A stretch of 61,469 nucleotides of DNA from contig JYFJ02002182.1 of assembly GCA_000934665.2 (NCBI GenBank), positions 1 to 61,469 of the forward strand. Direction: 5' to 3'. Positions within the stretch are counted from its first letter, which is position 1; the number at the start of each line of letters is the position of its first letter. The notes beneath the pieces are model-generated. The model was not told the DNA's origin. It made no database searches and saw nothing but the letters and a program-made list of their open reading frames with translations. This DNA is from Catajapyx aquilonaris (lineage: Eukaryota). Below are positions 7,101 through 34,700 of this stretch, piece by piece. The translations under genes were made by a program, and so were the position numbers.

Positions 7101-10100
7101 CGGCGTCTGAGTTTGAGGAAGGCGTGTCGGCAGTTGGAAATCAACCCCCTCCCCCCAGTCCCCCCCCCCCCAACCTCTAGCCCATCATCCTGGGGGAGAA
7201 AACACACTTGCTGCAGACATTGTCACCGCCGGCCCGTCCTTCATTTGCATATCGACGATCTAAGGGCGGGGCATTTCTTCCTTCCTCTAAATCCATCCCA
7301 CACCCCCACACCACCAAGCCTTATCCTCCCTATAGTACCATCACCTATAACGTTACCTATTCAAACCACCTGCATCACTATTCACTATCGCTTTGAGATG
7401 GGCGCATCATTTGATTCTAAATGCACAGAGAAGCATCTGGGTCACTGGACTAGGACTAATACTAGGCTAGAAGAAACCGTAATAAATACTGCAGTACTGT
7501 AATTAAATTCCTGCATGGTCACCAATATTGAAGACTGCAATACAATATGGGCCCATCTGTCAATTTTACAAAATAGTTTTAATGGCATACTGTCCTCCAT
7601 CTGGTGGATCCCCATATGTAGAAAATGCACAGAAATGTCACTACCTTAGTAGAAGTGCCTGAATAATGCTTTCAAAATTTTGTTAACTGTGATACTGTGA
7701 TAGAAACCAGAAAAAAAAATTATTCGCTTTTTGAATGTTTCACATGGGCCCTTGTTGAATTGCAGTCTTCAAACTTTTTTTTGAGTGATTTTGAGCATAA
7801 AGGTTTGAAACTCTGGAATTATTTCGCAATTTTCTGATTGGACACCCCAAATTTCTTTACAACACTTATTTATCACAATGTCGTTTTCAAAATATTTTCC
7901 GACGTATATAAAAATCGTCGCTCACATCTGCACATTGGTGCACTATCTCACTCGCACTGACCTTTGATTACATGAGCCAAGTTATATCATGCCAAGATTT
8001 TTTTGTGTGTTTAATATTAATTTGCCCTCCATCAGCAGAAAGTCAATCGGTGACATGAATGTAACACATGTCATTTCAAAAGGTGCATGATGACCTTACT
8101 TAGAGTAACTTTCCCACGTGGTCCCTAGCAACAAAAGGTGAGTTTGCATACTCTTCGAGTATCTGCGAACCACGTGCGTCCCATTGCCCATCCCCCACTT
8201 CACAACACGGTTCTCCTTTCAAGGGAGACAATGCAAATCCAGATCAAACCTCTCCCCTTTTCATTTACGGCGCCGGAATGGCAGCTCTCAAGAGCTTTGG
8301 CTTCTTCTTTTTTTTCCAGGGAGTTTTAGGCCCGTGACTAATCTCCATAGTGAAGAGAGGGGGCTGACTGTTCTATTCCAGCTTGCCTTGTGGTATCGGA
8401 TAGGGAAAAATATATATATAAAAGAGGATTCTCCTGTGGGGGGGCCGAAGACAGGGCCCAGGCGGGGCAGAGGGCGGGCAGGGGCAGCCCCTCTCTTGGG
8501 GGACTGCCAAAAAGTCGCTTCGGAGGGCTGTCAGCTTGATTCGCACTGCATAATTATTCTGCTCATGATTAATGCAATATTTGGCAACATAAAGTCGTTT
8601 CAAAAGTAAAAAAATCGAGCATAACTGCCTCATTGCAATAATGGGGCATGACTCAAGTCATTATCCGCGTAACTACACCGTAACAACGCGTCTAATCGCC
8701 ACTTCCCCCCAAAAATGCCTGGCCATCGATCTGCCAATCGTTATGGCAGCTTATGAAGCCAATTCGTTATAACAACTCCCTGCCAGTTCCGCTGACGCCG
8801 CCATCCTTGACTTATTTCCACTGTTAAGTTAGCATTCCTCCCCACCCGGGTGATTATTGGAATCATTACACTTCTCCCCCCTTATTTCCAGTCTGAATCA
8901 AAAGGTATATCAATATTCTTGACATATAGATCCGGACTTTGGCCTGGGTCCAAAAATAGTGCTGGCCTCCCATGAGAAGCTCTCAGAGAAAATGACGGAT
9001 GGCACCCCATGGACATGACAGAAAGCAGATGCAACACATTCCACACTCGTCACTATATGTGGCTCACACTTACAATGATTTCATCGTGCTGGGAAGTTTT
9101 TCGCGCCTTTATTATCCAGGAAGGTTGGATATAAAAAATTGTGATTATAAAAAGAAGTAGGGGGGAAGTTCTTTGGTGTATGGCTTGGATAGCTTTCTAT
9201 AGCCAAACCCCTTCGTGTATGATGGGGTTGAAAAGGCTGGACGTGCCGTCACCGCAATTGGGCCAATCGGTAGGGGCAACGTTCGCTAACGAACAAGGGA
9301 GGGTTCCACAGTACACACTACGAGCCTTTAAGATTTTTTTTTTCATATTTAGTTGAACCCAAGTTATTTTGTCCAACGTTCATCAACTGGTAATGTGCGT
9401 CGATTTGTCCACCAAAAAAAGTTGCTCATTCTGTAGCAATATTTCGCCACATATTTCCAGCAATCGTTCAACTTCCCCTGTTGCAATTTTCTGCCAGAGG
9501 TGCTTAACAGCACGCCATGGCACTAACCTTGAGTACTTTGTATCCGAAAAGGAGGGGGTGTGTTCTCTCAAGCTCGGTTGAAGACTGAGAAATATATCGG
9601 AGAGCAATATCAGTAATTCCGTGGGTACCCAGTCGGAAAATCCTAGCCCGGATTCTTGCCGTGCCGTCTCAACATTTCGCCGGGGTGAAGTAAGGCCAGG
9701 CGGAAAACAACAGGCAATAAGAGCCAGCCCCCTTTCCTTCCGCACCGGTTCACATCACTTGCTTGTCCCCCCTATATAGGAAGAAGAAGAAGAGGAGTGA
9801 GGAACATATGGACGGACTGTCTCTGAAGCAATATGGAACAGGCAGAGAGAGACCTGGTTGCTCAATAAGAGACAAGAGCAATCGAGATTAACCCCTTTTC
9901 CAGGCGAGTCCACACGCCTGACCGCATCGCTGGATTCCTGGAACGCCATCTATATCCAGGAAACCTGGAATATGTTAGCTGTCCCGACTGAGTAGCACTC
10001 TTTTGCTAAAAGTTTAGAAATTTTGCTAATAATAGATCAAGGGCGTAATTCCTTGCATAGTTACGATCAAATCAGAGCTAGTCACAGAATTAAATTGTTA

Positions 10101-13100
10101 CATTTTCATAATTATCATTATATAGGGTGACTCTAAAGTCTGGATACATAGGATTGAATTGTTGATTGCCAGTTGTGCCACTAGAGGTTGGGACACATTT
10201 CATCGGTCAGTGTTGCCAAATTTTGGCAACTGGTTCACTACTAGTATGCTAATAGCGCGTTTACTTCCAAAAAAACTTGACGAAAATTGAGTCGAACTTG
10301 ACGTGTCGTAGGTCACTTCCTCAATTCCAGGAACTGCGGACATTTACACCATCCTTGTGGTATTGTTGGAGCGTGACTCCACCCTACTCTTCCTCTCCCT
10401 ATTTTCTTCTCCTTCTTCTTTTTTTCTTGTTTTATTTGTTTGAACCGACGCTACTACCTTTCAGCGCGAATTAAGCGTCCTCTTCCGTTGGGTGACTAGC
10501 AGCACTTTAGAAGAGACGTGCACCAGGCGAGGAAAAGGAGCCCTGGACAAGCTAGGAGGCTTGTAAAAGGTATAGTGTTGGAGAGGGTGATGGCAGACAC
10601 TCGTTTTCTTCGGCTGCAGCAGGTGGTGGAATTCCCGCCAATCCCTCTACCACCCCCTTCCCCCTTAGTCTCTCCCTCCTTCTCCCCCGTCCTCTTACCG
10701 CAGGCAGATTGAGGATTCCCGGAGAAGAGGGAAGAAGGAAGGAAAAGCAAACTTCCGGAGAGAAGGAAAGACGACTTGTTCTCACACCACCATACTTGTT
10801 TTCCAGTCAAGAAATCTCTGGAAAGCAGACTAAAGAGAGCATTCACACGGTCTGTGTCTCTGTTTGTCCGCGGCGAGTCATCAGTAGCGTGTATATAGGG
10901 AGAGTGCGCCATCTATCAGTAATTGGATGCCAAGTTGCCGAATTGATGTTAACCTTAGGGCGAAATGTCGAAAGGTGACCAGCATTGTGTTCAGCCAGGG
11001 ACAAGCAAATTGACACTGAGTTCTCGGGAAAATTTTGCGAAGCGTAGTTGGGCACACAAAGAGGAAGGGTTCGCGGAATGGGCGAGAAGCGAGTGTGGAT
11101 ATTATTTTCCCGGAGGACATAAAGTGGAAATGACTCGATGAGGAGGACAAGGCAAGAGGAGGAGGAGTAGGGACAGGTTTTATTGTTAACCCGTTTTCCG
11201 ATGGAGGTTCCCATTTCCCCTGCTGATGCACCACCCCCCATGCCCCCAAAGTACTTGTTTATTCTTCCGATTCCTGAGTCCCGCAGACAAGCAGGCAGCA
11301 AAGCACGAGGGCTCCTGTTTGCCAAGCGCCACCTTGCCCTCTCAACATCTCTTTTCTTTCTTATTTGATTTAACCCCCCCCCCCCCTACAACTTCCCCTC
11401 CCCACAGTCTCTCAACAGTTCCCGGAAGAATCGTGGGATGTCAACGGCACCTTAATAACCATAAAAAATGTTTTGAAATTTGCAATAAAACCAACAAAAA
11501 AATGACTTTTTTTTCAAATGCATTTCATGTCTTACCATATACTACTTGATCGCATGAGGTTATGTCCGGTCATCTTCATTTTTTGTTTGCCTGTTTTACA
11601 CGTGCTTTTCCATGCTCAAAAAACCAGGCTGGCTTAAAATAAATGGATGACAGTCACGGTCTCTGACATCAGCAGAGCATATTTTTTTTGTTATGCCAAT
11701 TTTTTTGAAAGCATATGCTCTTCTTCATATTTTAAGTGCAGCTATTTTCACTGGTACTGACCTCACTTTTTTCACTTTTACTGCTTGGTCATATGCAGAC
11801 AGCAAATAAATGCGCAAAAAATTAGCAATTATTAAAAATTATAATTTCATGTGTACTTATTACGGAATCAGGCGATTCGAAAAAAAAGTAGGCATACAGC
11901 CAAATATCACTGCGCAAAATAATTTTTTCATGCAATTTACCATATGTGCAATCACACAAGTTACATTCAGTATCTCGTAATTAATGTGAGGAACAGACGA
12001 CCTTGCTTCTTTATCTCCACATAGGAACTGTAAGGTCGTGAAAGTTCGTCTCCATCTTATAAAATGAAAATAATCCGCATTCTCGCTTGCTCGAGCAGAT
12101 TACAAAGAATAAACATGTCAAGCTGCCTGGCATGCATAAAAGCCTATCTCTTATTCAATCTCTCCCCTTCCAAAAGCCGAGGGAAAAAAAAAATTCTTCA
12201 CAAAAAAGTCAACCCGCAGAACAAATCCAAGACGTCCAGAGTTTCTTTTGATCCAGCCAAAAGAGGTGGAAATCAACACAAAAGAAAAAAAATTCGGGGA
12301 GGCGCTTGCGCCGACAGTTGGCGACATTACAATAATTTCACCGTTTACTGCATAAATTCATGAAGTGTCTGTCGGAGGGTTTGAATGGTCGCTGCCATCT
12401 TTAGAAAGAAATAGTAAAAAAAAAAATCCGATCTCTCTTCCACATGCCTCTTTCCCACTTTCTTCAAAAAGTCAATAACGGATTTATAAGGTCTCTTCCA
12501 TTTTAATGGCACATTTTTTAAGTTCCAAGAAGTGAGCTCTCCTCCCCCCCAAAAAATATATAAGGAAACAGGAGCGTCTGAAGATGCCATCCGGAACTTT
12601 GTCGCCAATAATTTAAGGACATTATGGCCAAAGTTTTTGAAATGTTCGAAGGGGGGGACACTGCCTGGGCGCAAATTACCCCCACTTGAATTCGATAGGT
12701 GATGGGGACAGTCATTAGTCGACCAGATGACGATGTGTCGCCTTTAAAAATTCTGCGGAGATCGTTTTGGGGGGTTGATGTGGACACTTAGGATGACAAT
12801 AAATTTGGGTTGAAATTAAGGCGAAAAAATATGCTAAATTTTACTGTCAGCCCTTGCATACCGTCCAATAAACCCGTCTTCATTCAAGAAAAAATGACAA
12901 GCTGGATTCATCACTTATTTTTTGCAATTTCCTGAGTGGTGCCGCAGTCGGTTTCATTTTCCATGATTTACGAGCCATGATTACTTTATATGTGACACTG
13001 CATCTGCTGAAGTTTAAACTAAATCCGAATAATATCCTTCCTTCAAAAAAAAAAATGAATTGGTTCTGAAGCAACACCAATTCGAGCGCAGGAAGTATAG

Positions 13101-13637
13101 CAACATCAAAACAATACACCCGTAATTAGGTGCCTCTAATCAGAGAAAAACTTGCCCACAAATTATGGCAAAAGTTTCGCAAAAGTTCAGTAATTAGAGC
13201 AGATTGTTTGCCAATGGCAGCTGATGGCGCTTCCGAGCCCAATTATGATGTAAGAATCTCAAATTTGTAACTAACTTTTTAACGCGTACATCTTCTAAGT
13301 AGACGTGGATTTTCTTTCAAACAAATGTTCCTATGTTATGTGTTTTTTTCCGTACAGTATGGAACAGTTCTTACCCAATAAGTTACCTCCTCTGATCAGA
13401 ATAGCCAAAGAGTAATAAGGTGTCATTGCCCTCCATTCAATGAAAATATTTGCAATACCATGCGTACTCACCGAGCACGCCCGGCACACTCCGCACAGTG
13501 TCAGCCAAGCCCCGTGTCGGCCCCTGGGCCAAACGCTGGTACAGGTCCAGCATGTAGGTGGTGGATGGTGATGGCACAACCCTTGAGGAAGAACCAGCTG
13601 CTAGGGCAATGGCCAGGAAGAGGAAGAGAGGCGCCAT
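4137..13637 (-). CDS. BMP3: TGF-beta/BMP family ligand, BMP3/GDF10-like (~415 aa, 5 exons)
   Basis: Exons 13637-13472, 6254-5846, 5618-5300, 5247-5092 and 4334-4137 splice in frame (1248 nt). Signal peptide, YMLDLY prodomain helix, FN..E.L..AELHL, furin site RSKR. Seven-Cys knot: CHRR..GWD..YCAGAC..NHA..CC..CACR. Family is secure; BMP3 orthology is moderate confidence. Confidence 0.85.
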
Positions 13638-15139
13638 GGTCGCCCGCACGTGGCGGAGGCCCCCACCAGAAGCAGCTTCTCTTTCTCCTTATCTATCCGA
13701 AGAAAGACAGAGAGAAAGGTCCACCCCCACCAACAGAAGCCAGCAAGCAAGCAACACCCCCGCACGCTGCTGCAGCAGAAACAGTTCCCCCAGGGGAGGA
13801 ACACACTTGAAGCCAGAGGCCAGCGCGCGCAACGTCCACTGGAAAATTTCATGGGCCCAACCAGCGCATCTTTACTCGCACACCAACCCAACATCACCTG
13901 GAAAAAAAACCATCATCAACGAGGGGCATTCATGCCTTAGAATTATCAATATCCGGCAGTGTTCCAAACTATGTACACGAAGCTATTGAAAGGGTTCAAC
14001 ATTCGGAGAGATGTAGTGATTTTGGTTGGAAAATTTTTGCATCTGTGCCCAAAAATTGAGAATTTGAGCTCCTTTCCGAGCTTTGAATGTGGCCAATTTG
14101 GAAGCAGTCACACATACGGTATAACCTTGCTCTTGGTCCAACTGAGTTATCTTAGTTGTAGTGGGCATTTAAAAGGAATGATGAGGTCTCAATAAACATT
14201 TGCCCGATGCACATTATGGTGTTTTTTTTCAACACCTAGTGCAGAACTGGATTGCAAGCCTACTGTGTCAATATTTGCTCATAATTAGGCAAAATATACA
14301 GTGCAAATTTTAAATAATATTGTACAGCAGTCTTTAATGAAAAAACATTTTCGCGGAAGCCGTGTATCCCTCTCTGCAGGTCGTTTGTTGGATTTATTGG
14401 TTTTCCCCATCAATTTGTTGTAAATAATATATGAAAATAAAAATAATATGGTCTGTCTACTCCAGACGGAAAGGTAGATGGGTAAATTATGCACCCGTCT
14501 TCGCATTGGAATGCCATCATGATGATAACGCCTGAACTTCCATTGCAAACGTGAAAATAATACACAATCTGTAATCATTATTATTCCTTTATCACTTACG
14601 TTACTCTGTTTTCATAATATTATTTTAATTAAGAATTTCCGTGATTACGGATGAAAAGGCATCATTAGTGTGACAGGTGTAGTAGCAGCCACTCTTCTTA
14701 TTAAAGTTTACTTTAACAATATATTGCTCAATTGTCCTCAGTAAGTTAAGGTAAATGAGTTTGCCAAATTATATCATCTGGGAACATGGCCAAATTATAC
14801 ACATACACAGGGAGATTGTTCTTTTATACTATAGTGATGAAGATATCATGAACGTCTTTCGAAAGTTTGTCGTTTTTCTGTGACATCGATTTGTCATGCA
14901 CTTGAGTTTTGTGGGAATTGCGCTATGTGGACAGGAAACATCTGGGTCATCAGTGATAGATCCCTTCCTTGGGACATCGTTCTTTTCTTTTCGGGTAGGA
15001 ACAAGCCTAGCATCACTTAGGTGTATCTCGGATAAATAGCAAAAGTATAGTGACGCTTCCTAAAACAAACGGGTGACTCACAACTCCCAGCATTTTAACC
15101 AAAATAATGGTTACATAATTTAATGATTTTGATAATGGT

Positions 15140-15190
15140 AATCATCCTCATCATCCTCATCATCGTCATCCTCATCATCATCATCATCAT
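15140..15190. repeat. (CAT)n-type microsatellite
   Basis: Run of ATC/CTC/GTC triplets. Confidence 0.8.
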
Positions 15191-15739
15191 GCCAGATTCC
15201 TGAGCCAATGTTGCATCATATTAATATGCAGTTTCTATACATGCCATTATTTTTAAAAACAAGTTGATATTTATAAATTATAGTTATGGCTACGTGTTAC
15301 AAATCATAGGGTAATTATGTAAAGAAGTGGCCACATGTTGTAAAATAATCAGGATTTCACCCAGAAGCATATTTTAAATCAATTTGTATCATTAAGCAAT
15401 AATTATTCGTAAATCATTATATTAAACGTAACTGCTATACGTACATTTAAGTAAAATACTCGGCAAGGCATCGTAATGTGCATGATAATGTAACATTTAC
15501 AAAAACGGCTCCGCCTTTTAAAAACTTTTGCTATTAGGAAATCCAAATTCTCTCCCTTGAAATTGTCATATCTGCAGGCGACATATTTCCATCTTTACTG
15601 ATCACTTAGCCACTATTTGCCAACATTTGAAAGGAAAATGTGATCTTCTGATGTAGCCCATGCCCAAATTCCTCTAATGTGGAGCACGTAAATGTTTACG
15701 CACAAAGAAAACTCACACGCACAAGCGATAACAATGGAG

Positions 15740-15747
15740 TATATAAA
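15740..15747 (+). promoter_or_regulatory. TATA box of the defensin gene
   Basis: TATATAAA ~50 nt upstream of the ATG at 15797. Confidence 0.65.
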
Positions 15748-15796
15748 GAGGTCCCCGTGGATAATGCGTTAACAGCTCATCCAGCTTGGAACCAAA

Positions 15797-16244
15797 ATGT
15801 TCTTCTCAATCATTCTGTTCCTCGTTCTGTCGGCGACCACCGGTAAGTATGGAATTTACGAATAGATTTTTATCATAGAACTTACATTTTCTCTCATTTT
15901 CTGCAGCAATCGAGATTGATCCCGATGTAGATGTAACGTATTTCTTGTCTGAGGCTATTCCGGATGATGCAGCAGAAGATGAAATTGGCGCACTGAGGCA
16001 CCCTCGACTGTTTTTCTGTCTCATCCCATTCATCGGAGGCAATATGTGCTCGCAGTTCTGCAGACTTGCGGGAAGAGACAGAGGACAATGCTATGGCCTC
16101 ACTTGCTTCTGCGACGATAACCCCCCCACGACCACCACAACCACCACGACTACAACCACGACCAAAGCCCCAACCACAAGCACGTCAAGTCGACGTCCGT
16201 CACTAGGGAGCAGTCCATCAAGTAACGGGAAACTCTACAAATAA
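15797..16244 (+). CDS. Invertebrate CS-alpha-beta defensin precursor with Thr/Ser-rich C-terminal tail (127 aa, 2 exons)
   Basis: Exons 15797-15842 and 15907-16244. Signal peptide MFFSIILFLVLSATTA, acidic propeptide, RHPR site, then C-x9-C-x3-C-x9-C-x4-C-x-C. AATAAA at 16322. Confidence 0.8.
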
Positions 16245-16418
16245 GGCAAGGAAGGATCACAACTGAAGTGTATTATACCTCTACACAATAATCCAAACTA
16301 TTAGTTGATTAGTTATGCAGCAATAAAATATTGCCAAAACACTAGCCTGTATTATTATTTTGCACCTCTACTGATACACACAATCTGCCAGCAGCAACAG
16401 TCTTAATAACATGCATTA

Positions 16419-17600
16419 GACAGCGCAACAAAAAAAAACTACCTTTCGGCGTGTTACTCGGAAACCACTATGCACATCATGTTAGTAGGACCCAAAGTAG
16501 CTGGGAAACGCCCGGGATTTCTCTCCCAAAATGTGCAGTGGGTCAGGGTGATCAAAAATCCGAAAAATTCAAAATATTGACGTTTTTTGGCCTATTTCCT
16601 GGTCATGGCAACCACTGTAAGTTTCGGATTTTGTTTTTGCTGGCATTAGGTGTTACCTGGGTCTAGTCTGAAGCCACTATGGTGTTTAAAGTCAATCTTT
16701 TATAGAAACTGTGGTTTTCCAGGGTCCTTTTTATGAAAAAAATTCCGTTTTTTGGTACTTTTTCGTCAATTTTTGGGGAACAGTGTATGGACCTTTTTTT
16801 AAAAAAAGTGTAGCGTAATGGGCTCTTTAGAGACCCTACAATCGAGGAATAATAGTAGAACTTTCCTATGCAACCCTAGTACGCGTGTGCAAAAGCCTAA
16901 TCTTGGGTGAAATCGCGTTTTTTCGCATTTTTGGTGATTTGACTTTTTTCAACATTTAAAACCAAACATTCCTCGGCTTTAAAATATATGAATTCTTCTT
17001 AGTCTAACAAACTGTCAGGGACCCCCATAGTATGGAAAAAGACTACGATTTCATCAGTAGGTGTGTATTTTTGGAAAAAGTCAAATCACCAAAAATGCGA
17101 AAAAACGCGATTTTACCCAAGATTAGGCTTTTGCACACGCGTACTAGGGTTGCATAGGAAAGTTCTACTATTATTCCTTGATTGTAGGGTCTCTAAAGAG
17201 CCCATTACGCTACACCATTTTAAAAAAAAAGTCCATACACTGTTTTCCAAAAATTGACGAAAAAGTACCAAAAAACGGAATTTTTTCCATAAAAAGGACC
17301 CTGGAAAACCACAGTTTCTATAAAAGATTGACTTTAAACACCACAGTGGCTTCAGACTAGTCCCAGGTAACACCTAATGCCAGCAAAAACAAAATCCGAA
17401 ACTTACAGTGGTTGCCAGACCTGGAAATAGGCCAAAAAACGTCAATATTTTGAATTTTTCGGATTTTTGGTCACCCTGACCCACTGCACATTTTGGGAGA
17501 GAAATCCAGGGCGTTTCCCAGCTACTTTGGGTCCTACTAACATGATGTGCATAGTGGTTTCCGATTAACACGCCGAAAGTTTTTTTTTTGTTGCGCTGTG
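16419..17600. mobile_element. Non-autonomous foldback DNA transposon, ~530-bp TIRs, 4-bp TSD ATTA (Chapaev-like)
   Basis: 16419-~16950 is a near-perfect reverse complement of ~17075-17600. ATTA at 16415-16418 and 17601-17604. Right end GCGCTGTG gives a CAC-type terminus. Confidence 0.85.
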
Positions 17601-18890
17601 ATTATCAGAATATAAGTTAGTACTGAGCAACATTTGAGGGATCTAGTGGGAAAACTTCATAGCCCTCATAAATGTTTTCAGGAGAGCGAAGTACAGTATG
17701 TGTGGGTGGGTGTGACATTTGCATTCTCTTCACAAATCATAGGGAATGTGGGTTTTGATCTAGTCCGTGTTTCCGTATTGTGCATTATACGTGAACTTGG
17801 AGCTATATACCCAACTGTTTGTCATGCCTCTTACATAGTTGCTACGTGTTCAGGTAAAAATTGACAAAAATGAGGCGTAGGCTATTAAGTTTATCCACCA
17901 CACACCTCATTTCTCAACCAACCTGGTTTGAATTATTATTATTATTATTATTATTAGGAATGATACAATATTGAGGCTGTCCTGTATTATTTATTCATTT
18001 CTCTTGCTTAAAATTTCTGTTCATGGAACAGACTTGCGTTGCGTTGACCTGAGTGTGCACTTAAAACTACGAGTGAGATCCACGAGTGATATCCACATTT
18101 CCACCTCGTTAATGCTATTTAAAAGTCATCAAGTTATTACTAATATTCGGTGTTGGAAATTTTTGTGTACATATTTCATAATTGACATGGTCTGTTATAA
18201 CATTAGTTCAATATTATCTGTGAAAGAATGCATGCTTACACGACACTAGCTGACATTTAGAAAAATCTTTTTTGTTGCTAAATTATGTGTAAATATACTT
18301 GCCAAAAACCGTGATGATTACTATAATATGCTATACTGTACATCCGTGATTCCGCGTTTCTGTAAAATCCTGAATAAATAATTATGTGGAAGGAAGGTGA
18401 CACCAAAGAATACTTGCGTAACAATCATCTATATCGCTCAGTTAGTGACTTATGAGCCGATCTAGGCCTACATAACTTTATCAAGTTTCACTTCGAAGGT
18501 CGACATCTAAATATAGGCTCAAACTGTTCGTCCTACTATCCTTTCATATATCAATCAGAGTTAAATGTAATGACTAATGATTCAAGTAATTAAAATGAAC
18601 TGCTACTAACAGGAAAATTTGTGGACACCTTTTTTTTACCCACTTCATGAGATTTCTTTTTGGTTATTAGCATTGTGTTTCGTAACAATAATATTATAAA
18701 GCAGGTTGCAAAAGAGGCACACATTTTTGCAAAAAAATGACCATTCAAAACTGACTCATCTGAAGTAATAATTCGCTTCTTGACTGTACAGTAGGACTCA
18801 AAAGTTATGTACAGTATTCTACTACACCATGATTTTTTAAAAGTGGAACTGATGATTGTCGAATATTAAGCAAGTCATCATTATGTACTA

Positions 18891-19006
18891 TATACACCAA
18901 ATTGTTTCATACCCCCGGGGTATGAAACAATTTGTCGTATACCTAGGTATAGTGCTATACGACAAATTGTTTCATACCCCGGGGGTATGAAACAATTTGG
19001 CGTATA
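18891..19006. repeat. Nested double palindrome (MITE-like)
   Basis: Two copies of the hairpin AAATTGTTTCATACCCC/GGGGTATGAAACAATTT, arranged as inverted copies of each other and TATA-flanked. Confidence 0.8.
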
Positions 19007-19561
19007 TGGTACAATTAGGTACAATACTGTACAATACTACACTACAACGATATTTTAAAGTGGAACTAGGGTCAAAATTTATACATTTATAAGCAAGCCA
19101 TCAGAACAATGAACAATGGCGACTACAAAGTGAGAACTATCAGAGTACCGTATATGAATGTTTGTGAAATTCAAAATTGAATGTGCTTTATGTGAACCCG
19201 TTTTACTTAATTAACAGATCAAGCAGATGCTACCATTTTTTGCACAACTTGTAATTCTGGACAACTCTCATTGCAGTACTTTTCATTCAGAAATCGATTT
19301 CATCTAAATCCGCACACACTCTAATTATCCAATTCGAAATTTTCTAACTCAATGACAAGTAACAACCTTCAGTGCCGCAGACATCTATATTGATGATAAG
19401 AAATTCACTTTATTAGCCGGGATCAAATCGCCAGTGACCCGCGTCTGCTCCCGAGATGACCTCACAGGGGGTATGCGTCAAGAGTTCAAGATAATTACAT
19501 ATGTCCTAAACCAGGATCCCTTCTCTTGATATTTTGCACACGACACCAAGCATGGATTTGG

Positions 19562-19568
19562 TATAAAA
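19562..19568 (+). promoter_or_regulatory. TATA box of the hexamerin gene
   Basis: TATAAAA ~90 nt upstream of ATG 19657. GATA motifs (TGATAA ~19394, AGATAA ~19489) lie upstream. Confidence 0.65.
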
Positions 19569-19656
19569 GGTCTGCCCATCACCAGAATCGTCGCTGCGGT
19601 GACAAGTTCCAGTAGCCCCCCCAATAACTCTCGAGTTGTTGAGCTTTTAGACGAAG

Positions 19657-22600
19657 ATGAAACTGACCATTGCTTTCCTCGCCCTCCTTGTTGGAGTGGC
19701 CGTCGGACAGTGGGCTCGCCCCATCGGTAAGGCAGTGTCCGAAGCTATTGGAAGTAGTATTTGTCACCTAAAATTGTATGTACTTATTTTGTCTCTTTGT
19801 CCACACAGCTGACCAGGACTTCCTGGACAGGCAGCATTCCATCTACAAGCTGCTGACCAGGCCCCATCTGCCCATTGAGGACGCAGAGATCAGGGAGATC
19901 GGAAACACCTACAACCCCTACCGTTTCGCCAACTACTACAATGTGAGTATTGCTTTTTCCATGTACTGTTAATTGTCATGTACAGGGTGGTGTACTGCAG
20001 TATCCCATGGTCCTACAATGGATTAAGATGTGGACTCTTAACTTCAGCATCCATTTTATTTAAAAAGAGACAGGCAATTTGGGTTGCTTCTCTTTAGACT
20101 GGTTGCTGGAGTCAACAATCCGCAATTCTTGGGACTTGGGCAGTGCATAACCCTGTTTAATGATGATTGTTCAGGCCATTTTTTGCATTGTGAATATGAC
20201 CCAAGAAATAATTATAATTAGGCATGATCTGAATATTTAGTGCAATTTGATCTGCACTCTACTTCAACATGTAATTAAATATTGTTAGTTGCTTTAAATG
20301 TGCTCGCTGACTAATCAAGATTGCGCATTGTTGTAATTAAGTGTGCAGTTTTGTGCTGGCCTAATTGGATTTAGAGAATAATATTATTTATTGCGGCCAT
20401 TTTTTCTCGGACAGATAATGGGGCAATATAATTTCCTTCTCGGCTGTGTTTCTATACAGTCACTTAAAAATTACCTTGACACAGTTAATATGGAAATTTA
20501 AAATCGCATAATGAGAATTTATCAATCCTGAGAATGCAATGCTTTCGGCAATACCGTATTTCACAAAATAATTCTGCCAGAAATATTTTAAAAAATTCAT
20601 TGCAAGATTATGTCCATGTGTTTCCAAAAAAAACATTTTTCCTCCTTAATTTGCAATTTAACTTTCATCTGTGCTTTTGATCATTTTTACCAAGGTGGTA
20701 AAACCAATAAGGACCAACAGTTAAATCATATTAACTGTCTTGCATAAAACGACATACGATTTAATTTTCACTCTATGGGCCCTATTCTAACAGTTGGTGT
20801 CCTCTACATTCAGTATCAAAACTTAAATGCATTTTGCAATTTAAATATGTGGCTCAGATTGGTCAGGAACCATTTTAACCCAAATGTTTGGCTGTGGGGG
20901 GTGTTCAGCTTTTATGGTCCCATAGTCCTGCCATGTGTCGAACATTTCCAAATAATTCTCCCCGTATTCGAGTGGGTTTTCTCTCACTGCCCAAAATCAC
21001 CTGATGGCATTAGTTGCCTCGGCACCTCCAATAAGCCAAACTATAATTCTGGGTGGTAAGAATCTCCTTCTCGACTTGCTTCTGGCCAACAGTCTTTACA
21101 ATTTATTGTTGTCTCTCCGAATCCAGGTTCCCGAGCAGCACATCCAGCAGTACGTGCAGCAGGTGGAGCAGGGTCAGATCCTCCACCGCGGAGTGGCTTT
21201 CAACGTCCTTGACGATGCCCACCGCCGCGAGATGGTCACCCTCTTCCAGCTGCTTCACCAGGCCAGGGATTGGGAAACCTTCCACAAGACCGCCGCCTGG
21301 GCACGTCAGCGTGTGAACGAGTACATGTTCGTGTACGCCTACACCACTGCCCTCCTGCACCGTGCTGACTCCCAGAACTTCAAGATCCCCCCAACCTACG
21401 AGATCTTGCCTGGGAACTACTTCACCCCCGAGGTCCTCCGCCAGGCCTTCGGAACCGGCTACGGTTACGGACAGGTGAGGACACACTAATTGAACTGATG
21501 TTTGTCCGACCTGGTAGTACCTACACCTCTCACTCGCCCTGAGTGGCAGGAGCGTGCAGAGGGTGGATGCGCCATCTATGATAGGTAGTGTGTACTTACA
21601 CCTGGATTTCTCTGCCCACAGAACGGTGTGGTGATCCCCACCACTTTCGCCTACAAGTACTACAACCCCGAGCAGCGTTACGTCGCTTACCACACTGAGG
21701 ATGTCGGCATGGGCCAGCTCCATGAGGTCTTCCACAAGCAGTTCCCCTTCTGGAATTGCCAGAACCAGGAGCGCCAGGGAGAGCTTTTCCACCACTTCAT
21801 CCAGCAGACCCTCGCCCGCTACAACCAGGCTCGTCTGAGCAATTACATGCCTTTCGAGCAGCGTTTCAACTATGGACGCCAGTACGGATTCCCCGGAGAG
21901 CACTACGGTAACTACTACGGCTACCCCGAGCAGCACCAGGAGATCGAGGGCGTGAAGAAGGTTCATGGATACACCATGGAGAAGGAGGTCGTTGGACAGA
22001 AGTACGGATATGGCTACCCCGAGGAGGTTGAGGGAGAGAAGAAGGTCCGCGGTTTCACCACCGTTGAGAAGTTCGTCCAGGGCCAGCGCTACCCCGCTGG
22101 ATTCCACAACTTCCACTACCTGACCACCCCCATCGAGAAGCTCGTCCAGCTGGTCCAGCTGCAGCAGCAGCAGGGTCTGACCACCGTCGCCGAGAAGGAG
22201 ATGCTCCTGCAGCGCATGCAGCAGGAGGGACAGATCACCCCCATCGAGAAGGAAGAGCTCATGCAGCAGGTCTACCGCCAGCACCATGTCCTCTACACCA
22301 TCGAGAAGATCGCCTACCTGAACAAGCTTCACCATGAGGGTGTCATCTCCCAGATCGAGAAGGAGCAGATGAAGATGCACTTCGAGCAGAAGCTTGAGAT
22401 GCAGGAGGCTTTCACCGGCCGCTTCGAGAAGGAGCAGATCGTCCGCAAGGTTATCGAGCAGCAGGGTGCCATCTCCCCCATCGCCAAGGTTGAGGTTCTG
22501 GAGCGCCTGCACCAGCAGGGCATCATCACCCCCATGGAGAAGACCGAGCTTCTGCAGAAGGTCGAGCGCAAGCACTTCGAGAAGGAGCAGGGATACCCCA

Positions 22601-25437
22601 CCCCCGTCGACCAGATGGAGCTCCTGGAGACTCTTGAGCGCCAGGGTGTCATCGGACCCATGGAGAAGGTTGAGATCCATCAGCAGATCCAGCAGCAGTA
22701 CTACGGCCACCAGTACCCCGCTGAGTTCTACAACTACCACTACCTGACCACCCCCATCGAGAAGCTCGTCCGTCTGTACCAGCTGCAGCACCAGCAGAAC
22801 CTGAACACCGTTGTCGAGAAGGAGATGCTTCTGCAGCGCATGATGCAGGAGGGACAGATCACCCCCATCGAGAAGGAGGAGCTGATGCAGCAGGTCAACC
22901 GCCAGCACCATGTTCTGTACACCATCGAGAAGATCGCCTACCTGAACAAGCTTCACCACGAGAACGTCATCAGCCAGATCGAGAAGGAGCAGCTGCAGCA
23001 GCACTATGAGCAGAAGCTTCAGATGGAGGAGGCTTTCACCGGCCGCTTCCAGAAGGAGCAGATCGTCCGCAAGGTCATCGAGCAGCAGGCTTCTATCTCC
23101 CCCATCGCCAAGGTTGAGGTTCTGGAGCGCCTGCAGCAGCAGGGTGTTATCACTCCCCTGGAGATGAACGAGCTCCTGCAGAAGGTTCAGCGCAAGCACT
23201 TCGAGAAGCAGCAGGGATACCCCACCCCCGTCGACCAGATCGAGCTCCTGGAGCAGCTTGAGCGCCAGGGTGTCATCGGCCCCATGGAGAAGGTTGAGAT
23301 CCAGCAGCAGATCCAGCAGCAGCAGCAGTTCTACGGATTCCCCGGCCAGTACCACCACAACGGATTCTTCGGCCAGCGTTACCCCGCTGAGTTCTACAAC
23401 TACCACTACCTGACCACCCCCATCGAGAAGCTCGTCCGTCTGTACCAGCTCCAGCACCAGCAGGGTCTGAACACCGTTGCCGAGAAGGAGATGCTTCTGC
23501 AGCGCATGCTGCAGGAGGGACAGATCAACCCCATCGAGAAGGAGGAGCTCATGCAGCAGGTCTACCGCCAGCACCATGTCCTCTACACCCTGGAGAAGAT
23601 CGCCTACCTGAACAAGCTTCACCATGAGGGAGTCATCTCCCAGATCGAGAAGGAGCAGCTGAAGATGCACTACGAGCAGAAGCTTCAGATGGAGCAGGTC
23701 TTCACCGGCCGCTTCGAGAAGGAGCAGATCGTCCGCAAGGTTATCGAGAAGCACGCTTCCATCTCCCCCATCGCCAAGGTTGAGGTCCTGGAGCGTCTCC
23801 AGCAGCAGGGTGTCATCACTCCTCTGGAGAAGATCGAGCTTCTGCAGAAGGTCCAGCGCAAGCACTTCGAGAAGCAGCAGGGATACCCCACCCCCGTCGA
23901 CCAGATGGAGCTCCTCGAGACCCTTGAGCGCCACGGCGTGATCGGCCCCATGGAGAAGGTTGAGATCCAGCAGCATCTGCAGCAGCAGTATGGCTTCCCA
24001 GGCCAGTACCGCCACTTCGGATTCCCCGGCCAGCAGTACCACCACTTCGGATTCCCCGGCCAGTACAACCGCTACGAATTCCCCGGCCAGTACCGCCACG
24101 AATTCCCCGGCCAGTACCGCAACGAGTTCCCCGGCCAGTACAACCGCTACGAATTCCCCGGCCAGTACCACTTCGGACACCCCGAGGAGTACCAGAACGA
24201 GTACCGCTACCCCGTTGAGAAGATGGAGCAGATCAAGCAGTGGGAGCGCCGCATCCAGGAGGCCATCGACACCGGATACGCCCGCGATGTCAACGGACAG
24301 AACATCTACTTCAACCAGACCCACGGTATGGACGTCCTGGGAAAGATGATCCAGGCCTGCGAGGACAGCGCCAACCCCACCTACTACGGAAGCCTCCGCA
24401 ACGCCCTGCACATGCTCCTGGAGCAGCAGCAGCAGCGTGGATACCCTGTGAACGACTTCCACACCTACGTGAGGGACCCCGCCTACTACCGCATCGCCGA
24501 GCTGGTCAACCAGCTGGGTCACCGCTTCCAGAGCTACCAGACCCCTTACACCCGTGAGGAGCTGGAGTTCCCCGGAGTCCAGGTTGAGACCGTCGAGGTT
24601 CTCGGAGAGGAGGAGACCAACCCCAACATGCTGACCACCTACATGGACAAGTACAACGTGGATATGGCCAACGCCGCTGAGGACAACGTCATCTCCCCCG
24701 TGCAGCTGATCGAGGCCCAGCGTCTCCACCACAAGAGCTTCCAGTACGTCATCAAGGTCCGCTCCACCATGGTCAAGAAGGCCCTGGTCCGCATCTTCAT
24801 GGCTCCCATGTACGACCACTACGGTGTTGAGATCCCCCTGACACAGCAGCGCCACCACTACATCGAGATGGACAAGTTCATCACCGTCCTGAAGGAGGGC
24901 CAGACCGTCATCCGTCGCTCCTCCCTGGAGTCTTCCATCGCCGTCCCTGAGACCATGGGCTTCAAGCAGATGATCGAGGAGGTCGTCGCCGCCAAGGAGG
25001 GCAAGACCGTCTTCTACGTCCAGGAGAACCAGCCCCGCTGCGGAATCCCCCAGAACCTTCTTCTGCCCCGCGGAACCCCCGAGGGCATGAAGTTCAACCT
25101 TCTGGTCATGGTCACCGACGCCGAGAAGGAGATCGTTGAGCACTACCGCCACCAGTACCTGAACCTGCCCGTCTACAAGAGGCAGTACCAGCAGCAGACC
25201 CGCTTCGTCCAGCAGGAGAAGGAGGTCCAGGTCCAGCAGGGTGTTGAAGAGCACTACATGCCCACCTACGCCCAGTGCGGTCTCATCGACGGAAGCTACC
25301 CCTTCGCCAGGAGCATGGGATACCCCCTCGACCGCCCCATCCACTACTACGGCAAGCAGGCCTTCCAGACCCTGAACATGAAGTTCGTCGAGGTCGTGGT
25401 CAAGCACGTCAGCGCCTTCGCCACCCCCGCCTACTAA
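19657..25437 (+). CDS. Giant hexamerin (hemocyanin-superfamily storage protein), ~1455 aa, 4 exons
   Basis: Exons 19657-19726, 19809-19942, 21127-21474 and 21622-25437 (4368 nt). Signal peptide. Motifs ADQDFL, TAAWARQRVNEYMFVYA, EDVG..FPFW..GELF..QQTLARY, YYGSL, RDPAYY, YTREELEFPGV, CGIPQNLLLPRG and SMGYPLDR. Three of the six Cu-binding His positions are substituted. Confidence 0.92.
22081..23988 (+). repeat. Three coding tandem repeats (~624-666 nt) in hexamerin
   Basis: Units start at 22081, 22705 and 23371 (GQRYPA../GHQYPA..HYLTTPIEKLV). Confidence 0.95.
23989..24177 (+). repeat. Short coding repeats (G/E)FPGQY
   Basis: Seven FPGQ(Q)Y units at ~24-30 nt spacing. Confidence 0.9.
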
Positions 25438-25631
25438 GCAACTTGTAACACCGCCAAGCCAATCTTCCCGCACTATGTGATTCTTTACTTGCCAAAACAA
25501 CAGCCATGAGCAAATAAATATGATAGTGTGAGCAACCAAAATACCTTCTTCTCATTTTGTCTCTCCAGCAGCACAGCGAGCGCAACCGAGTGCGCACCCA
25601 CACTCGCGCAGCTCCACCAGTTACGACAACA

Positions 25632-25767
25632 CTCCTACTGAGTAACTCTGGCAACGTTGTGACAACAACGTTGCCAGAGTAGGAGCCAAATTAACGTGAG
25701 GTAGCCTCTGAGTCTCTGAAACGTCGCCCATTTTGTTCCCCCCGAAGAGTAGCGTTGGAAATAAGTA
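25632..25767. repeat. Dispersed repeat with a perfect 16-bp hairpin
   Basis: ACTCTGGCAACGTTGT-GACA-ACAACGTTGCCAGAGT at 25645-25680. Shares sequence with 2864-3005. Confidence 0.6.
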
Positions 25768-26876
25768 GAGCAATTAATTGCAATTGATATAATGCCAACC
25801 ATGCCAATATGTGGTGCGCACTTGGTTGGGCTACATTTTTAAAAATCTTACTATGACAGCAATGACAATTGCAGTACAAGTACAAGTACAAGCTAGTTAC
25901 AATAGGAATATTAGTTTGTCCACCCAACCAAGCATGCCGCGCAAAAAGGACTCAGAACAAGTAATGCCCTCTATTGGCAATATCTGGAAACACAATCCAT
26001 GCACTTTGATTGCACATATTTTAACTTAATTTGTCTTTTAAAATGCTTATTAGCACACAAAATGACTTGTTAAATCTGCATAAGCACTAACATTATTCTA
26101 AAAATTAAACATGAGTTTACACAATCTAGCTGTACACTGCGACCAATCAGATTGCAGTGTGCAATCCTGTCGACCAATAGTATTTAGCTTGGTTTCATGC
26201 ACAATCAGTTAATGTTATTATTGAACATTATTAATTTTTTAAAATTAAAGCAATTATTACTTCATTAATAAATGAAGCTTTTGCCTAGATAAATAGCCAG
26301 TTATTCATCTTGCAACACTGTTCAGCTAAAAGGCGCGGACGCCATATTTCTTTTCCTGTTCGATCCCTTGTCACTTGCCCTTTTAAGTGACAACCCGGTG
26401 CATTTCGTCCCTTCCTTCGAGGCCAGCAGTGTACAGACAGGGTAAGATCACAACTGCACACCCACAACAATTACCTGTCGGCTCTAATCACAAGCATTAT
26501 GAGGGCATGTATAGTTGCAGACCCGTTCGGTTGAAAAATTGCATTATTGGCACCCCTTGCCAAGTCACATGTCCCAGTGTAGCCAATGCTAATTGGCATG
26601 TTTAATTAGTCGCAATGAGCACGGAGAGAGGGTCCAACTATCACCTCTAGCGTCACATTTGAATGAAAAGTCCGCAAGTCACTTTCGAGCGATCAGTACT
26701 TACTTACGTGGAAATATTTCATTTAATCACACTTTATCCTGTTGGGAACACTGTTGGGTAACACATGTGAAAACATTGCAATTTTCTTCCTTCTTTTACT
26801 TGCCAAAAGACATTTTGTCAGAACATTGCATGCATACTCAATCATGAAATCATCATCTACATGAAAACGTACGCTT

Positions 26877-31551: not shown

Positions 31552-31724
31552 AGCAACGGGCAGTATTGTACCAGAAGGGGTCCATATAACATATTTTGGG
31601 GCGAAACATTTATTTTGAATAAACCTTACTTTTTTTAGCATCCGATTTCCGTATTGTCTTGTGCTAGTCATGAAAAGCATGGCTACAATCGTAACACTTT
31701 TATTTTGCACTTGAACTATTGCAG

Positions 31725-34700
31725 TTATCCTGACTTTTTCGACTTGATGGTCTTCAAACTTGCCCTGGACGGCCGTTTGCTCAGCGAAATGCTTGAAGCC
31801 GTTACACGGATACTAGAGTCTTCCTTGGTTTCTGCGTCTTTCTTCTCTTTGATCTCTTCATCTGGGTCCTTGACCACCACAGACGGAGTGCTTTTCTTCA
31901 CAGATGACCCCTTAGATGATTTCTTGATCACTGCAGTCGTGCCCTGTATAGTTATACCTGCCTCCTCGATTGATCCAGCATCGGGCGACTCCCCCATCAT
32001 ATTGGTTGGCTCCCCGTTCGCTGCGGCCGAGTCTTTGGTCGCTGCAGCTACGGCCGAGTCTTTGGTCGCTGCAGCTACGGCCGAGTCTTTGGTCGCTGCA
32101 GCTACGGCCGAGTCTTTGCTCACTGCAGCTACGGCCGAGGCTTTGCTCACTGCAGCTACGGCCGAGGCTTTGGTCACTGAAGCTACAGCCGAGCCTTTGG
32201 TCACTGAAGCTGCGTCAGTCTCTTTGATCGATTTCCCCTCAGGCACTTCCTTGATCACTGGCATGACGGCCACGTCGGACTCGGCAGCCCAATTCTTCCT
32301 CCTCCGCTGCAGCAGGGGCTTTGCGGTGATGGAAATGTCCGGCTTCGCCTTCGGAATTGTCGGCTTCATCACATTAACCTGGTTGGAAAACAATTTTTTA
32401 GTGACTACAGCGCTTTTCCGAGTGCAACGGACTCACATGCCCCGGCTTCGTCGGTATGGTCACGTTGAAGGTTGGCTTGAAGGTGCTGTCCCCAACGATC
32501 CTGGAGAATCTGTAGTGGTTGGGTGCGGGGACCGGAGTGACGAACGACTGGAAGCGCTTCTTCTTCGAGGTCATCAAGTTCTTCTGCTCTTTGCAAACCT
32601 TGGGGTCGTACGAGCCAGGGCCTGTGCGGAGAAGGCAGAAGAAAGTATAATTTCATGACTAACCCCGCGTTTAACGTGTGAGCGATTTAATCAGCGATGA
32701 AATCAATTGACTTGGAGCGATACACGATTGTTACCTTTGCCCCCAAACGATTAGATTCATCGCTGATTAAATCGCTCACATGTGAACACGGCCTAATATT
32801 ACTGCAGCGCAATGCTCTGTAAATAAACCAACAGCCTTCCGCCCCGACAAAACATTGGGAAAGTATACGGCCACGTACTGGGGGACGGTCCCAGCCTCCT
32901 GTCCATCTTCGGGTCTCCGAACGGACCGAATCTGGTCATAGAGCTGAAGAATGGGGTGGCCTTGGAGGCAGGGTGACCCGTGATCAGCGGAATGGTCAGG
33001 TTGTAACGATTCGGAGCAATCTGGGGCTGGAAAGGAAACGCAATCGACGACAATTGAACGCCATTTCGGGAGTTACGACTACTCACGACGACAGGCGAGA
33101 TCTCCTTCTGGGTCATTCTCCTTGTTTTCGACCTGAAGGCGCTTCCGTGGGCAGGCACGGCCTTCACCGGTTGTCTGGGCGTGTACCTCGTGGAAGGCGG
33201 AACCTGCAGAATAGTCTTGCTGAACAGCATGGTGCTCCTCTCCGTGCTGACGAGGAAAGCGCCGGCGACGGTCCTGGTCATCCACTTCTGCGATTATGCG
33301 ATTCAGTAATTACGTCAGTTGTACTCTTCAAATTTCCACCGAGATGTCATGCAACAAGTGTCGATGCTTTTTACACCTGTCGACACGACCGAACTTGCCT
33401 GTTTCCTCCACTTGTCCGCCAAGCACGGGAGGTTGTATCTCCCCGGACCAGGCACGACATCCCCGCCTCCTTCCCTGAACCTCTCCGCCTTCCCAGCAAT
33501 GTTGGATCCCTTCTGCATTCCCCGCTGCTCGTAGAAGTACAGAGAAGGCGACTTCGGCCTCGGGTAGGTCTCCGGCCCCGGAGTGTCTGACACTTTGAAG
33601 TAGGTCTTCTTGCGCCCCTCGTTAGTGAACGAGGAAGTGGGGATCTGGTGGCGTGGATCCGGGTGCCACGGGTCGTGAAAGTGGTACGCTCCAGGTCCTG
33701 CGAATATAACGAGTAAGTACTGTACAGGCGCAACTGAGCCGCATGTCAGACCTGGACACCACTTGTGCCGCTCCTGCCGCACCAGCCGATCCAGCGACCT
33801 CAGTTTGTCAGTCCCGAACTTGACGCCCGTGTTGTTCGGTCCCCACGGACTGAACGAGAGTACGTCCACGTTGTACCTGTTCGGCGGAGGAGCGCGTGAG
33901 GGAGGAGACGGCATGCGTGGGGTCTGCAGGAAGTGGATCCCGTGATACAGCTCATGCGACATGGGGGGCGCGGCCGCTCCGAAGTACCGATCCGGCCCAG
34001 GCGGAGGCTCGTACTCATGCCGAACCTGCTGGAGACGACCTCCGGGCATCTCGGTGTAACCTACAATACAACGAACATCAGGTCATACTTCTATAACTTA
34101 CAGTAATGTATTTTAGGGCATGTAAGACGCACCACCAACAAATTAGTGCATTTTTGCATATACGACGCAGGGCAATTTTTTGAGCCACTTTTTCCTATGC
34201 CGTCAAATAAGTCCCGCAGTACTCACCCACGATATTCTTCGACGGTATGGACGCATAGTCCCTGATTGGTGGCTTCCTTCGTCGCAATGGTGGCTTTACG
34301 GCCAGAATCCGCTTCGAAATGTCTCCTCTGGTGTCATACCGAGTCGCTGGCGGACCTGTGGCCATTCCCTTTGGCTTCGCAAATCTGGCGGCCGTGTTGA
34401 ATCCCAAGCTGGTGTAACCCTTCACCTGGAGGCATGCTGTGCTTACGACTGGAGGGTAGTAGTGAGCAGGACTCGGCTCCGCTTTACGATGCTGCTCTGC
34501 GATTCTTTCTTGCCAACGCTGATCGGTCGACAGGAACGGAGCGGCGCTTGCTGTAAAGTCAGGTGAAATTAAAGGCAAATATTGAAGCAATTCCGCAACA
34601 ACCTGTACTGACATGTAGTCTTCTTGATTGCGGTGTCCTTAAACGGCTGGTAGTTCGGAGGCCCGATGGCGGTGGTGGTTCCACTGGGCCTGTTCAAGAA

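Follow-up and report, generated by a model that had tools for sequence, protein, structure and literature searches.

How a hemocyanin-type subunit could come to carry 780 additional residues in the middle of its copper-site domain, and what those residues do, is the question raised by a gene on contig JYFJ02002182.1 of Catajapyx aquilonaris (assembly GCA_000934665.2). We analysed a stretch of 61,469 nucleotides (nt) of this contig (positions 1–61,469, forward strand), hereafter the window. The four-exon gene occupies 19657–25437 on the + strand, and its joined coding sequence (CDS) of 4368 nt is an uninterrupted frame of 1455 amino acids (aa), the size given in a preliminary description of the locus. 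The mature protein, computed from the joined CDS, has a mass of ~171 kDa and an isoelectric point of 6.3, and would rank among the largest subunits of its superfamily. On balance, the gene probably encodes a secreted, copper-less storage-type subunit of the hemocyanin superfamily whose mass has been doubled by a lineage-specific, in-frame expansion of a loop in the M domain. As judged from its sequence, the subunit would be a hexamerin or a pseudo-hemocyanin, would serve as a store and would assemble into hexamers.

A hemocyanin core with incomplete copper sites

From its N- to its C-terminus, the protein carries the three domains that characterise arthropod hemocyanins and their derivatives: an all-alpha N domain, a copper (M) domain and an Ig-like C domain, which places it in the hemocyanin superfamily. 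Exon 1 (19657–19726, +) provides the ATG and a hydrophobic N-terminus (MKLTIAFLALLVGVAVG...), which resembles a signal peptide as judged by eye from the exon sequence, and closes in phase 1 with a donor GT at 19727; the 1455-aa product would thus enter the secretory route. Exon 2 (19809–19942, +) opens the N domain, and exon 3 (21127–21474, +) supplies the remainder of Hemocyanin_N (PF03722, 99.4 bits against a cut-off of 28.9). Exon 4 (21622–25437, +) consists of 1271 codons and a stop, and spans the start of the M domain, the entire insert, the rest of the M domain and the C domain. Both Hemocyanin_M (PF00372, 113.8 bits, in two stretches) and Hemocyanin_C (PF03723, 204.9 bits) score above their cut-offs. 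We infer intron 1 (19727–19808) from its GT..AG ends, the reading frame and the signal-peptide-like start; none of the listed sequencing contigs described below spans this junction.

A search of solved structures in the PDB returned 24 relatives of the protein at E ≤ 1e-3, led by the crustacean hemocyanins 6l8s (chains A–C) and 1hc1/1hcy (E 6.5e-59 to 2.6e-57). Among these structures, crustacean hemocyanins (6l8s, 1hc1) score 198–203 bits, chelicerate hemocyanins 170–175 bits, phenoloxidases and related proteins 159–169 bits, and insect hexamerins 82–140 bits. The core thus scores better against crustacean hemocyanins than against any insect hexamerin of solved structure, and the name hexamerin proposed in the preliminary description holds at the level of the superfamily. 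The nearest Atlas clusters of the core are named for arthropod arylphorin, hemocyanin and pseudohemocyanin (including pseudohemocyanin-2-like), and 13 proteins match the core at E ≤ 1e-10, with a top identity of 31%.

We then compared the copper sites, taking the positions of the ligand histidines to be those generally assigned in arthropod hemocyanins. In the alignment to 6l8s, the first and second CuA histidines are retained (LHEVFH) and the third is an isoleucine; in CuB, the second histidine is retained, the first is an arginine and the third an alanine. A functional hemocyanin or phenoloxidase has all six histidines. Three of the six are replaced here, which makes oxygen binding unlikely, and with half of the ligands gone the subunit is most likely a non-respiratory derivative. 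It shares with crustacean hemocyanins all three domains and the two CuA and one CuB histidines, and differs in carrying a 780-residue insert in place of a hemocyanin loop of ~20–30 residues, and in its subunit mass of 171 kDa versus ~75 kDa. The loss of copper ligands is common to insect hexamerins and pseudo-hemocyanins, as are the cluster names arylphorin and pseudohemocyanin-2-like.

Non-respiratory hemocyanin derivatives arose several times in arthropods (PMC6034248), and insect hexamerins and decapod pseudo-hemocyanins (cryptocyanins) are copper-less derivatives that act as amino-acid stores (PMC6034248, PMC2861669). The insect hexamerins and decapod pseudo-hemocyanins described there have no insert at this site of the M domain. 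Oversized hexamerins are described in PMC2861669: honey-bee HEX 110 and Nasonia HEX102/109, of 102–110 kDa, have a Gln/Glu-rich insertion, which in HEX 110 amounts to 291 aa and interrupts the C domain. Compared by description only, HEX 110 and the Catajapyx protein share the Gln/Glu-rich bias and a comparable event within one superfamily; here, however, the insert is 780 aa long, lies in the M domain rather than the C domain, and is built on three repeat levels with helix caps, which sets it apart from the HEX 110 type. The dipteran fat-body protein 1 (P0005, 1217 aa) is likewise a hemocyanin-family protein with ~580 extra residues, but these are placed after the N domain and ahead of position 87 of the M profile, at a different site, and their likeness to the insert did not exceed chance in BLASTP (best E 0.59). 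In open-access papers and preprints, HEX 110 was the only large or repetitive hexamerin insert we found, and we met no hexamerin there with one of this size, site or architecture.

Architecture and transcription of the insert

The insertion point is defined by a split alignment. HMMER aligned exon-4 residues 13–115 to residues 170–283 of 6l8s, corresponding to the CuA-region part of the M domain (21622–21858, +), and exon-4 residues 854–1174 to 6l8s residues 268–592, corresponding to the CuB region with the remainder of the M domain and the Ig-like C domain (24199–25434, +), in accord with Pfam, whose Hemocyanin_M match divides at the same place. Because of this split, the 780 extra residues (264–1043 of 1455; 21859–24198, +) replace the loop between the two copper-site regions, where the preliminary description had located the excess. 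The core without the insert measures 675 aa. Glutamine (15.0%), glutamate (12.8%), leucine (8.2%) and lysine (6.9%) are prominent in the insert; glutamine and glutamate together make up 22.7% of the whole protein and 27.5–31.4% of the repeats, and the aromatic residues Tyr, Phe and Trp account for 30% of the tail and 18% of the leader.

A Tyr/Gly/Glu-rich leader of 77 aa (21859–22089, +) opens the insert. It contains twice a piece of 26–29 aa (...E-[IV]-EG-x-KKV-[HR]-G-[YF]-T-x-EK...) that HMMER aligned to the native hemocyanin segment immediately preceding the insertion point. Three large repeats follow on the + strand, each of 204 aa and each composed of a 12-residue aromatic head, YPAGFHNFHYLT in the first, and ten helix-turn units of 16–24 aa: repeat 1 at 22090–22701, repeat 2 at 22714–23325 and repeat 3 at 23380–23991. 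They are joined by a linker of 4 aa (22702–22713, +) and an aromatic Tyr/Phe/Gly linker of 18 aa (23326–23379, +). The insert ends in a tail of ~70 residues (23992–24198, +) with seven FPGQ-containing (FPGQY) repeats of 8–10 residues, ~30% Tyr and Phe, in which Tandem Repeats Finder detected a period of 27 nt in 6.7 copies (23995–24171). Reference copies of 300 nt, starting at 22081, 22705 and 23371, are 88–93% identical, and their spacings of 624 and 666 nt correspond to start-to-start distances of 208 and 222 residues. Over the 204 shared codons, the large repeats are 90–91% identical in DNA and 84–89% in protein.

A hidden Markov model (HMM) of the unit recovers all 30 units at 12–24 bits, in keeping with the proposed total of about 30; no other stretch of this protein, nor any of 18 further proteins, scores above 0.8 bits. 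The proposed consensus is likewise recovered: positions 1–5, [ST]-P-[IMV]-E-K, carry 2.3–3.3 bits each versus 1.2–1.9 for most others. Further along the unit, hydrophobic residues recur around positions 8, 9 and 12 and G-x-I around 16–18, although the mean identity among the ten unit types is only 29%. We also considered a polyprotein or peptide precursor and rejected it: dibasic sites number 13 in all and do not flank the units.

Public sequencing runs with matching sequence numbered 17, none on record as RNA, and contigs of four of them were compared with positions 13000–26000 of the window. In one run (X1), a contig links 19942 to 21127 across the 1184 nt of the intron at 19943–21126 (GT..AG), and a second joint, 21470 to 21618 (equivalent, with a shift of 4, to 21474|21622), skips the 147 nt of the intron at 21475–21621 (GT..AG). 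From these spliced contigs we take X1 to be cDNA-like. No X1 depth is found over 13000–16037, where the DNA run X2 stands at ~34. X1 contigs are present in every bin of the insert (22114–24283), and two copy-specific X1 pieces, 22482–22614 and 22929–23123, show 0 differences from the window. Among the 15 X1 joints listed of 61, none lies inside exon 4. Because X1 contigs both splice two GT..AG introns and cover the insert, the insert is transcribed; it is part of the spliced transcript rather than an unrecognised intron, which goes against the concern raised beforehand that it might be absent from the message. X1 word depth ranges from ~10^3 to 7 × 10^5 over exons, versus 0–10 in introns and flanks, and fits a very abundant message, with the limit that such depth is a poor measure of expression.

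Could the long form still be an assembly artefact, or a minor product beside an ordinary subunit of ~700 residues, through mis-sized repeats or an allele, paralogue or isoform lacking the insert? We consider this very improbable. In its favour, two X1 contigs carry 16 loose letters directly before 24196 that match the window once only, at 21912–21927; joining 21927 to 24196 would keep the frame and remove 756 of the 780 insert codons. Behind this joining may stand a rare isoform, a template switch, or else an allele or a paralogue that lacks the insert. Also in its favour, no DNA contig among those listed spans the array. The stretch skipped by the joining begins with GA and finishes with AG, and is thus no canonical intron, which speaks against such a product. 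Against a minor or artefactual long form stand the complete X1 coverage of the insert, with its copy-specific pieces free of differences, and the frame, which is uninterrupted through 2340 nt. The three copies are moreover ~9–10% apart in DNA, and copy 2 has a private extension of 18 codons (54 nt), which is unlike a mis-assembly of identical repeats.

Several variant-letter clusters occur in X2 contigs (21348–21370, 24288–24344, 24768–24773, 25054–25062 and 25373), most of them also in X1, and X1 contigs have loose ends at 24419, 24451, 24672, 25172 and 25250. Taken jointly, the clusters and loose ends suggest that the genome contains, elsewhere, at least one close paralogue that is transcribed, which also bears on the possibility of an insert-less product. 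Runs X6 and X7, labelled as other organisms, contain contigs with 0 differences at 21634–21815 and 24335–25536 at a depth of 2–6, which may reflect either a very close relationship of the source organisms or the transfer of a very abundant transcript from one library to another.

Origin, fold and relatives of the helix-turn units

The edges of the insert suggest where the units came from. HMMER matched residues 268–283 of 6l8s twice, once in the leader and once directly after the insert, and the native sequence that follows the insert, RYPVEKMEQIK..., resembles the start of each large repeat (RYPAEF...) as well as the unit motif. The two best matches of the unit HMM outside the repeats are the edges of the insert, YTMEKEVVGQK and YPVEKMEQ, at 0.3 and 0.8 bits. 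These edge matches would be consistent with an array that grew by unequal crossing-over from the first residues of the native helix. A short piece of this helix start, which lies just past the loop, may thus have given rise, probably by serial tandem duplication, to about ten diverged helix-turn units of 18 residues, and the ten-unit block with its aromatic linker would then have been triplicated recently. Synonymous divergence (dS) is ~0.18–0.20 for all pairs of large copies, which indicates that the triplication was recent and near-simultaneous, or else that the copies have been homogenised. The ratio of nonsynonymous to synonymous divergence (dN/dS) between large repeats is 0.34–0.51, significantly below 1 (Fisher p 0.02, 0.002 and 0.0003), and the repeats are under mild purifying selection. 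Replacements at motif positions are not depleted (16/98 versus 22/94, p 0.28).

To describe the fold, we modelled large repeat 2 with AlphaFold2, using the other two copies as the alignment (three rows), and the whole insert without an alignment (one row); such predictions are weak evidence either way. Copy 2 is modelled as eight helices that cover 154 of 204 residues (~75%). The helices break for five residues at the [QE]-G-x-I-[ST] turns, and helix runs uninterrupted across two boundaries between units where Gly or Pro is absent. Each unit would accordingly form a short helix, capped by an N-cap box (Ser/Thr-Pro-x-Glu) at one end and by a glycine C-cap at the other, and these two caps in every unit would make the array soluble and largely helical. 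The mean predicted local distance difference test (pLDDT) score is 63.1 and the predicted template-modelling (pTM) score 0.37. The whole-insert model has the same helices at a mean pLDDT of 45.6 and a pTM of 0.23, with the leader, tail and linkers as coil (pLDDT ~30). In a charge-hydropathy plot, the repeats fall at the boundary between order and disorder and the leader on the disordered side. Predicted self-association of three copies of one repeat (score 0.00 against a mark of 0.32) counts neither way. On these measures together, the insert would consist of defined, capped helices under mild constraint, with a compact fold neither supported nor excluded.

The preliminary description envisaged a folded array, and it is possible, if rather unlikely, that the thirty capped helices pack as an alpha-helical repeat, a solenoid or a zigzag of hairpins, forming a new domain present six times per hexamer for packing, higher-order assembly or partner binding. 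The coincidence of the modelled helix breaks with the conserved [QE]-G-x-I-[ST]-P turns, at 75% helix, fits such a structure, as do the cap and hydrophobic positions kept among unit types of such low identity and the dN/dS values given above. Hydrophobic residues occupy more than one helix face, as in helices buried between neighbours. The helix-forming part of the claim is thus upheld by the models; the fold itself is not, given their low pTM and pLDDT, with the weakness of one to three alignment rows. Foldseek, run on this low-confidence repeat model, returned no match at E ≤ 0.001 and none at E < 0.9 (best E 0.91, template-modelling scores 0.2–0.29). The position of the repeats on the charge-hydropathy boundary and the failure of recent replacements to avoid motif positions also speak against a packed array.

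The unit helices had been described as amphipathic, and this did not hold. Their hydrophobic moments, 0.13–0.37, lie within those of 500 shuffles for each of the ten units (z −1.0 to 0.9). This result bears on a further proposal, that the insert is an apolipoprotein-like array of Pro-punctuated amphipathic helices carrying lipids or other hydrophobic ligands. Lipid- and ligand-carrying hexamerins exist, and tandem short helices parted by proline and rich in Glu, Lys and Gln are what such an array would look like. Repeats of the exchangeable-apolipoprotein kind are amphipathic, however, and the ten unit helices are no more so than their shuffles; no Pfam apolipoprotein family matched at E ≤ 10 either, and we regard this function as improbable.

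Relatives of the repeat were sought by sequence. A word-indexed search of 5.8 billion proteins with residues 160–800 (protein lengths 699–2225) gave none at E ≤ 1e-3. With one 222-aa repeat, phmmer found 5 matches at E ≤ 1e-3 and 0 at E ≤ 1e-10 among 1.84 billion representatives. Four of the five are bacterial TrbI-like proteins (P0014–P0017, E 1.7e-6 to 5.2e-4) that carry tandem SHOCT-like (PF22746) domains at 100–200 bits, and the fifth (P0018), repetitive and unannotated, contains 0 Pfam families. The ESM Atlas gave no usable match to the repeat, and PDB sequences gave 0 matches at E ≤ 10. In Pfam at E ≤ 10, nothing reached a cut-off, and TPR, HEAT, Sel1, PPR and other known alpha-solenoid families did not match. 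Of two metagenome scans, one that used the C-terminal 415 aa gave 57 pattern matches and the other, based on the repeat alignment, gave 597; none was confirmed. In the databases searched, the repeat is without a family, a solved relative or a convincing homologue.

The likeness to SHOCT-type motifs noted in the preliminary description can be narrowed to the turn. The insert and the tandem SHOCT-like arrays of P0014–P0017 have in common the signature L-x-x-L-x-x-x-G-x-[IL]-[ST]-P-x-x-[EA]-x-x-L-L, and an HMM of 41 bacterial turn windows scores the insert at 17.6 bits, versus at most 3.9 in 200 composition-preserving shuffles. This likeness beyond composition is a further point for a packed helical array. 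The Pfam models, by contrast, stay below their cut-offs: SHOCT (PF09851) reaches 14.6 bits against 27, the SHOCT-like DUF1707 (PF08044) 20.6 bits against 27.6 without any one stretch reaching it, and PF22746 is unlisted on the repeat even at E ≤ 10. In the reverse test, the unit HMM gave only negative scores on the bacterial TrbI-like proteins. The period also differs, being 18 residues with one helix per turn here and ~35–70 residues in SHOCT-like modules, and SHOCT is chiefly bacterial and C-terminal (PMC3581485). We consider the likeness weak but real, and convergence on a helix, Gly-x-Ile/Leu-Ser/Thr-Pro, helix turn appears likelier than common descent.

The storage reading brings these results together as follows. 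The main effect of the insert would be to add ~90 kDa of protein rich in Gln and Glu (28%) and locally in Tyr and Phe to each subunit, and this mass would enlarge the supply of nitrogen and aromatic residues that each particle of an abundantly produced haemolymph store carries. The Pfam domains, the loss of three of the six copper histidines, the signal-like start, the presence of the insert in the transcript, the X1 word depth over the exons, the Gln/Glu and aromatic composition, the mild constraint, the lack of a family or fold match and the matches at the edges of the insert argue for it. Other observations weigh the opposite way. The units keep their N-cap, Pro, Gly and hydrophobic positions at 29% identity, which implies some structural requirement that pure filler would not need, and a dN/dS below 1 would fit a folded domain equally well. 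The matches to the flanks are statistically insecure, at independent E-values of 0.9 and 1.3. The count of three copies comes from the assembly, as the listed X2 short-read contigs break within the array. Finally, the two X1 contigs with the in-frame joining hint at an insert-less form, and were that form dominant, the long form may be minor.

Surroundings of the gene and significance of the insert

Among the open frames of the window, this gene is the only member of the hemocyanin family. Others match zf-HIT, Mnd1, 3-hydroxyacyl-CoA dehydrogenase, Fcf2, ODR4-like and ribosomal L9 families, and further matches are to C2H2 zinc fingers, a Tc5-type transposase domain, WD40 and BTB; by these matches, the window is eukaryotic. 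An antisense frame of 1478 residues, rich in Leu, Val, Gly and Asp, spans the whole gene on the minus strand (21103–25539). It is best explained as a by-product of sense codons that are repeat-rich and strongly biased in GC content at third positions, and the GT..AG joints identify the + strand as the sense strand of the gene.

High-copy repeats flank the gene at 16038–18207 and 25586–26000, where summed X2 contig depth reaches 9,000–14,000 and ~3,000, respectively, versus ~34 for single-copy sequence, and many alternative joints occur at ~25600–25750, right after the stop codon. Farther downstream, a GC-rich stretch (31639–34082, GC fraction 0.56) has long open frames on both strands without a Pfam match; the minus-strand frame at 31725–32432 contains tandem KDSAVAAAT-like repeats, and another frame, at 33315–34082, several PGPG-x-Y-like motifs. 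The minus-strand frame at 45204–45680 matches the Tc5 transposase DNA-binding domain (E 4e-15) and is probably a remnant of a pogo/Tc5-type transposon.

Beyond storage, a bolder and doubtful proposal is that the insert is an alpha-helical repeat domain of recent birth that folds on its own, derived from duplicated first turns of a native helix, which converged on the bacterial SHOCT-like solution and is displayed six-fold on the particle to mediate assembly or binding. If true, it would represent a datable de novo birth of a domain from a fragment of an existing fold. The insert also offers a natural series, from the flanking helix start through diverged units to a recent triplication, that may inform the origins of repeat proteins and would be useful for asking whether capped 18-residue helices suffice for a fold. 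Should the insert be storage mass alone, the strategy of HEX 110 would have recurred independently at another loop of the same superfamily.

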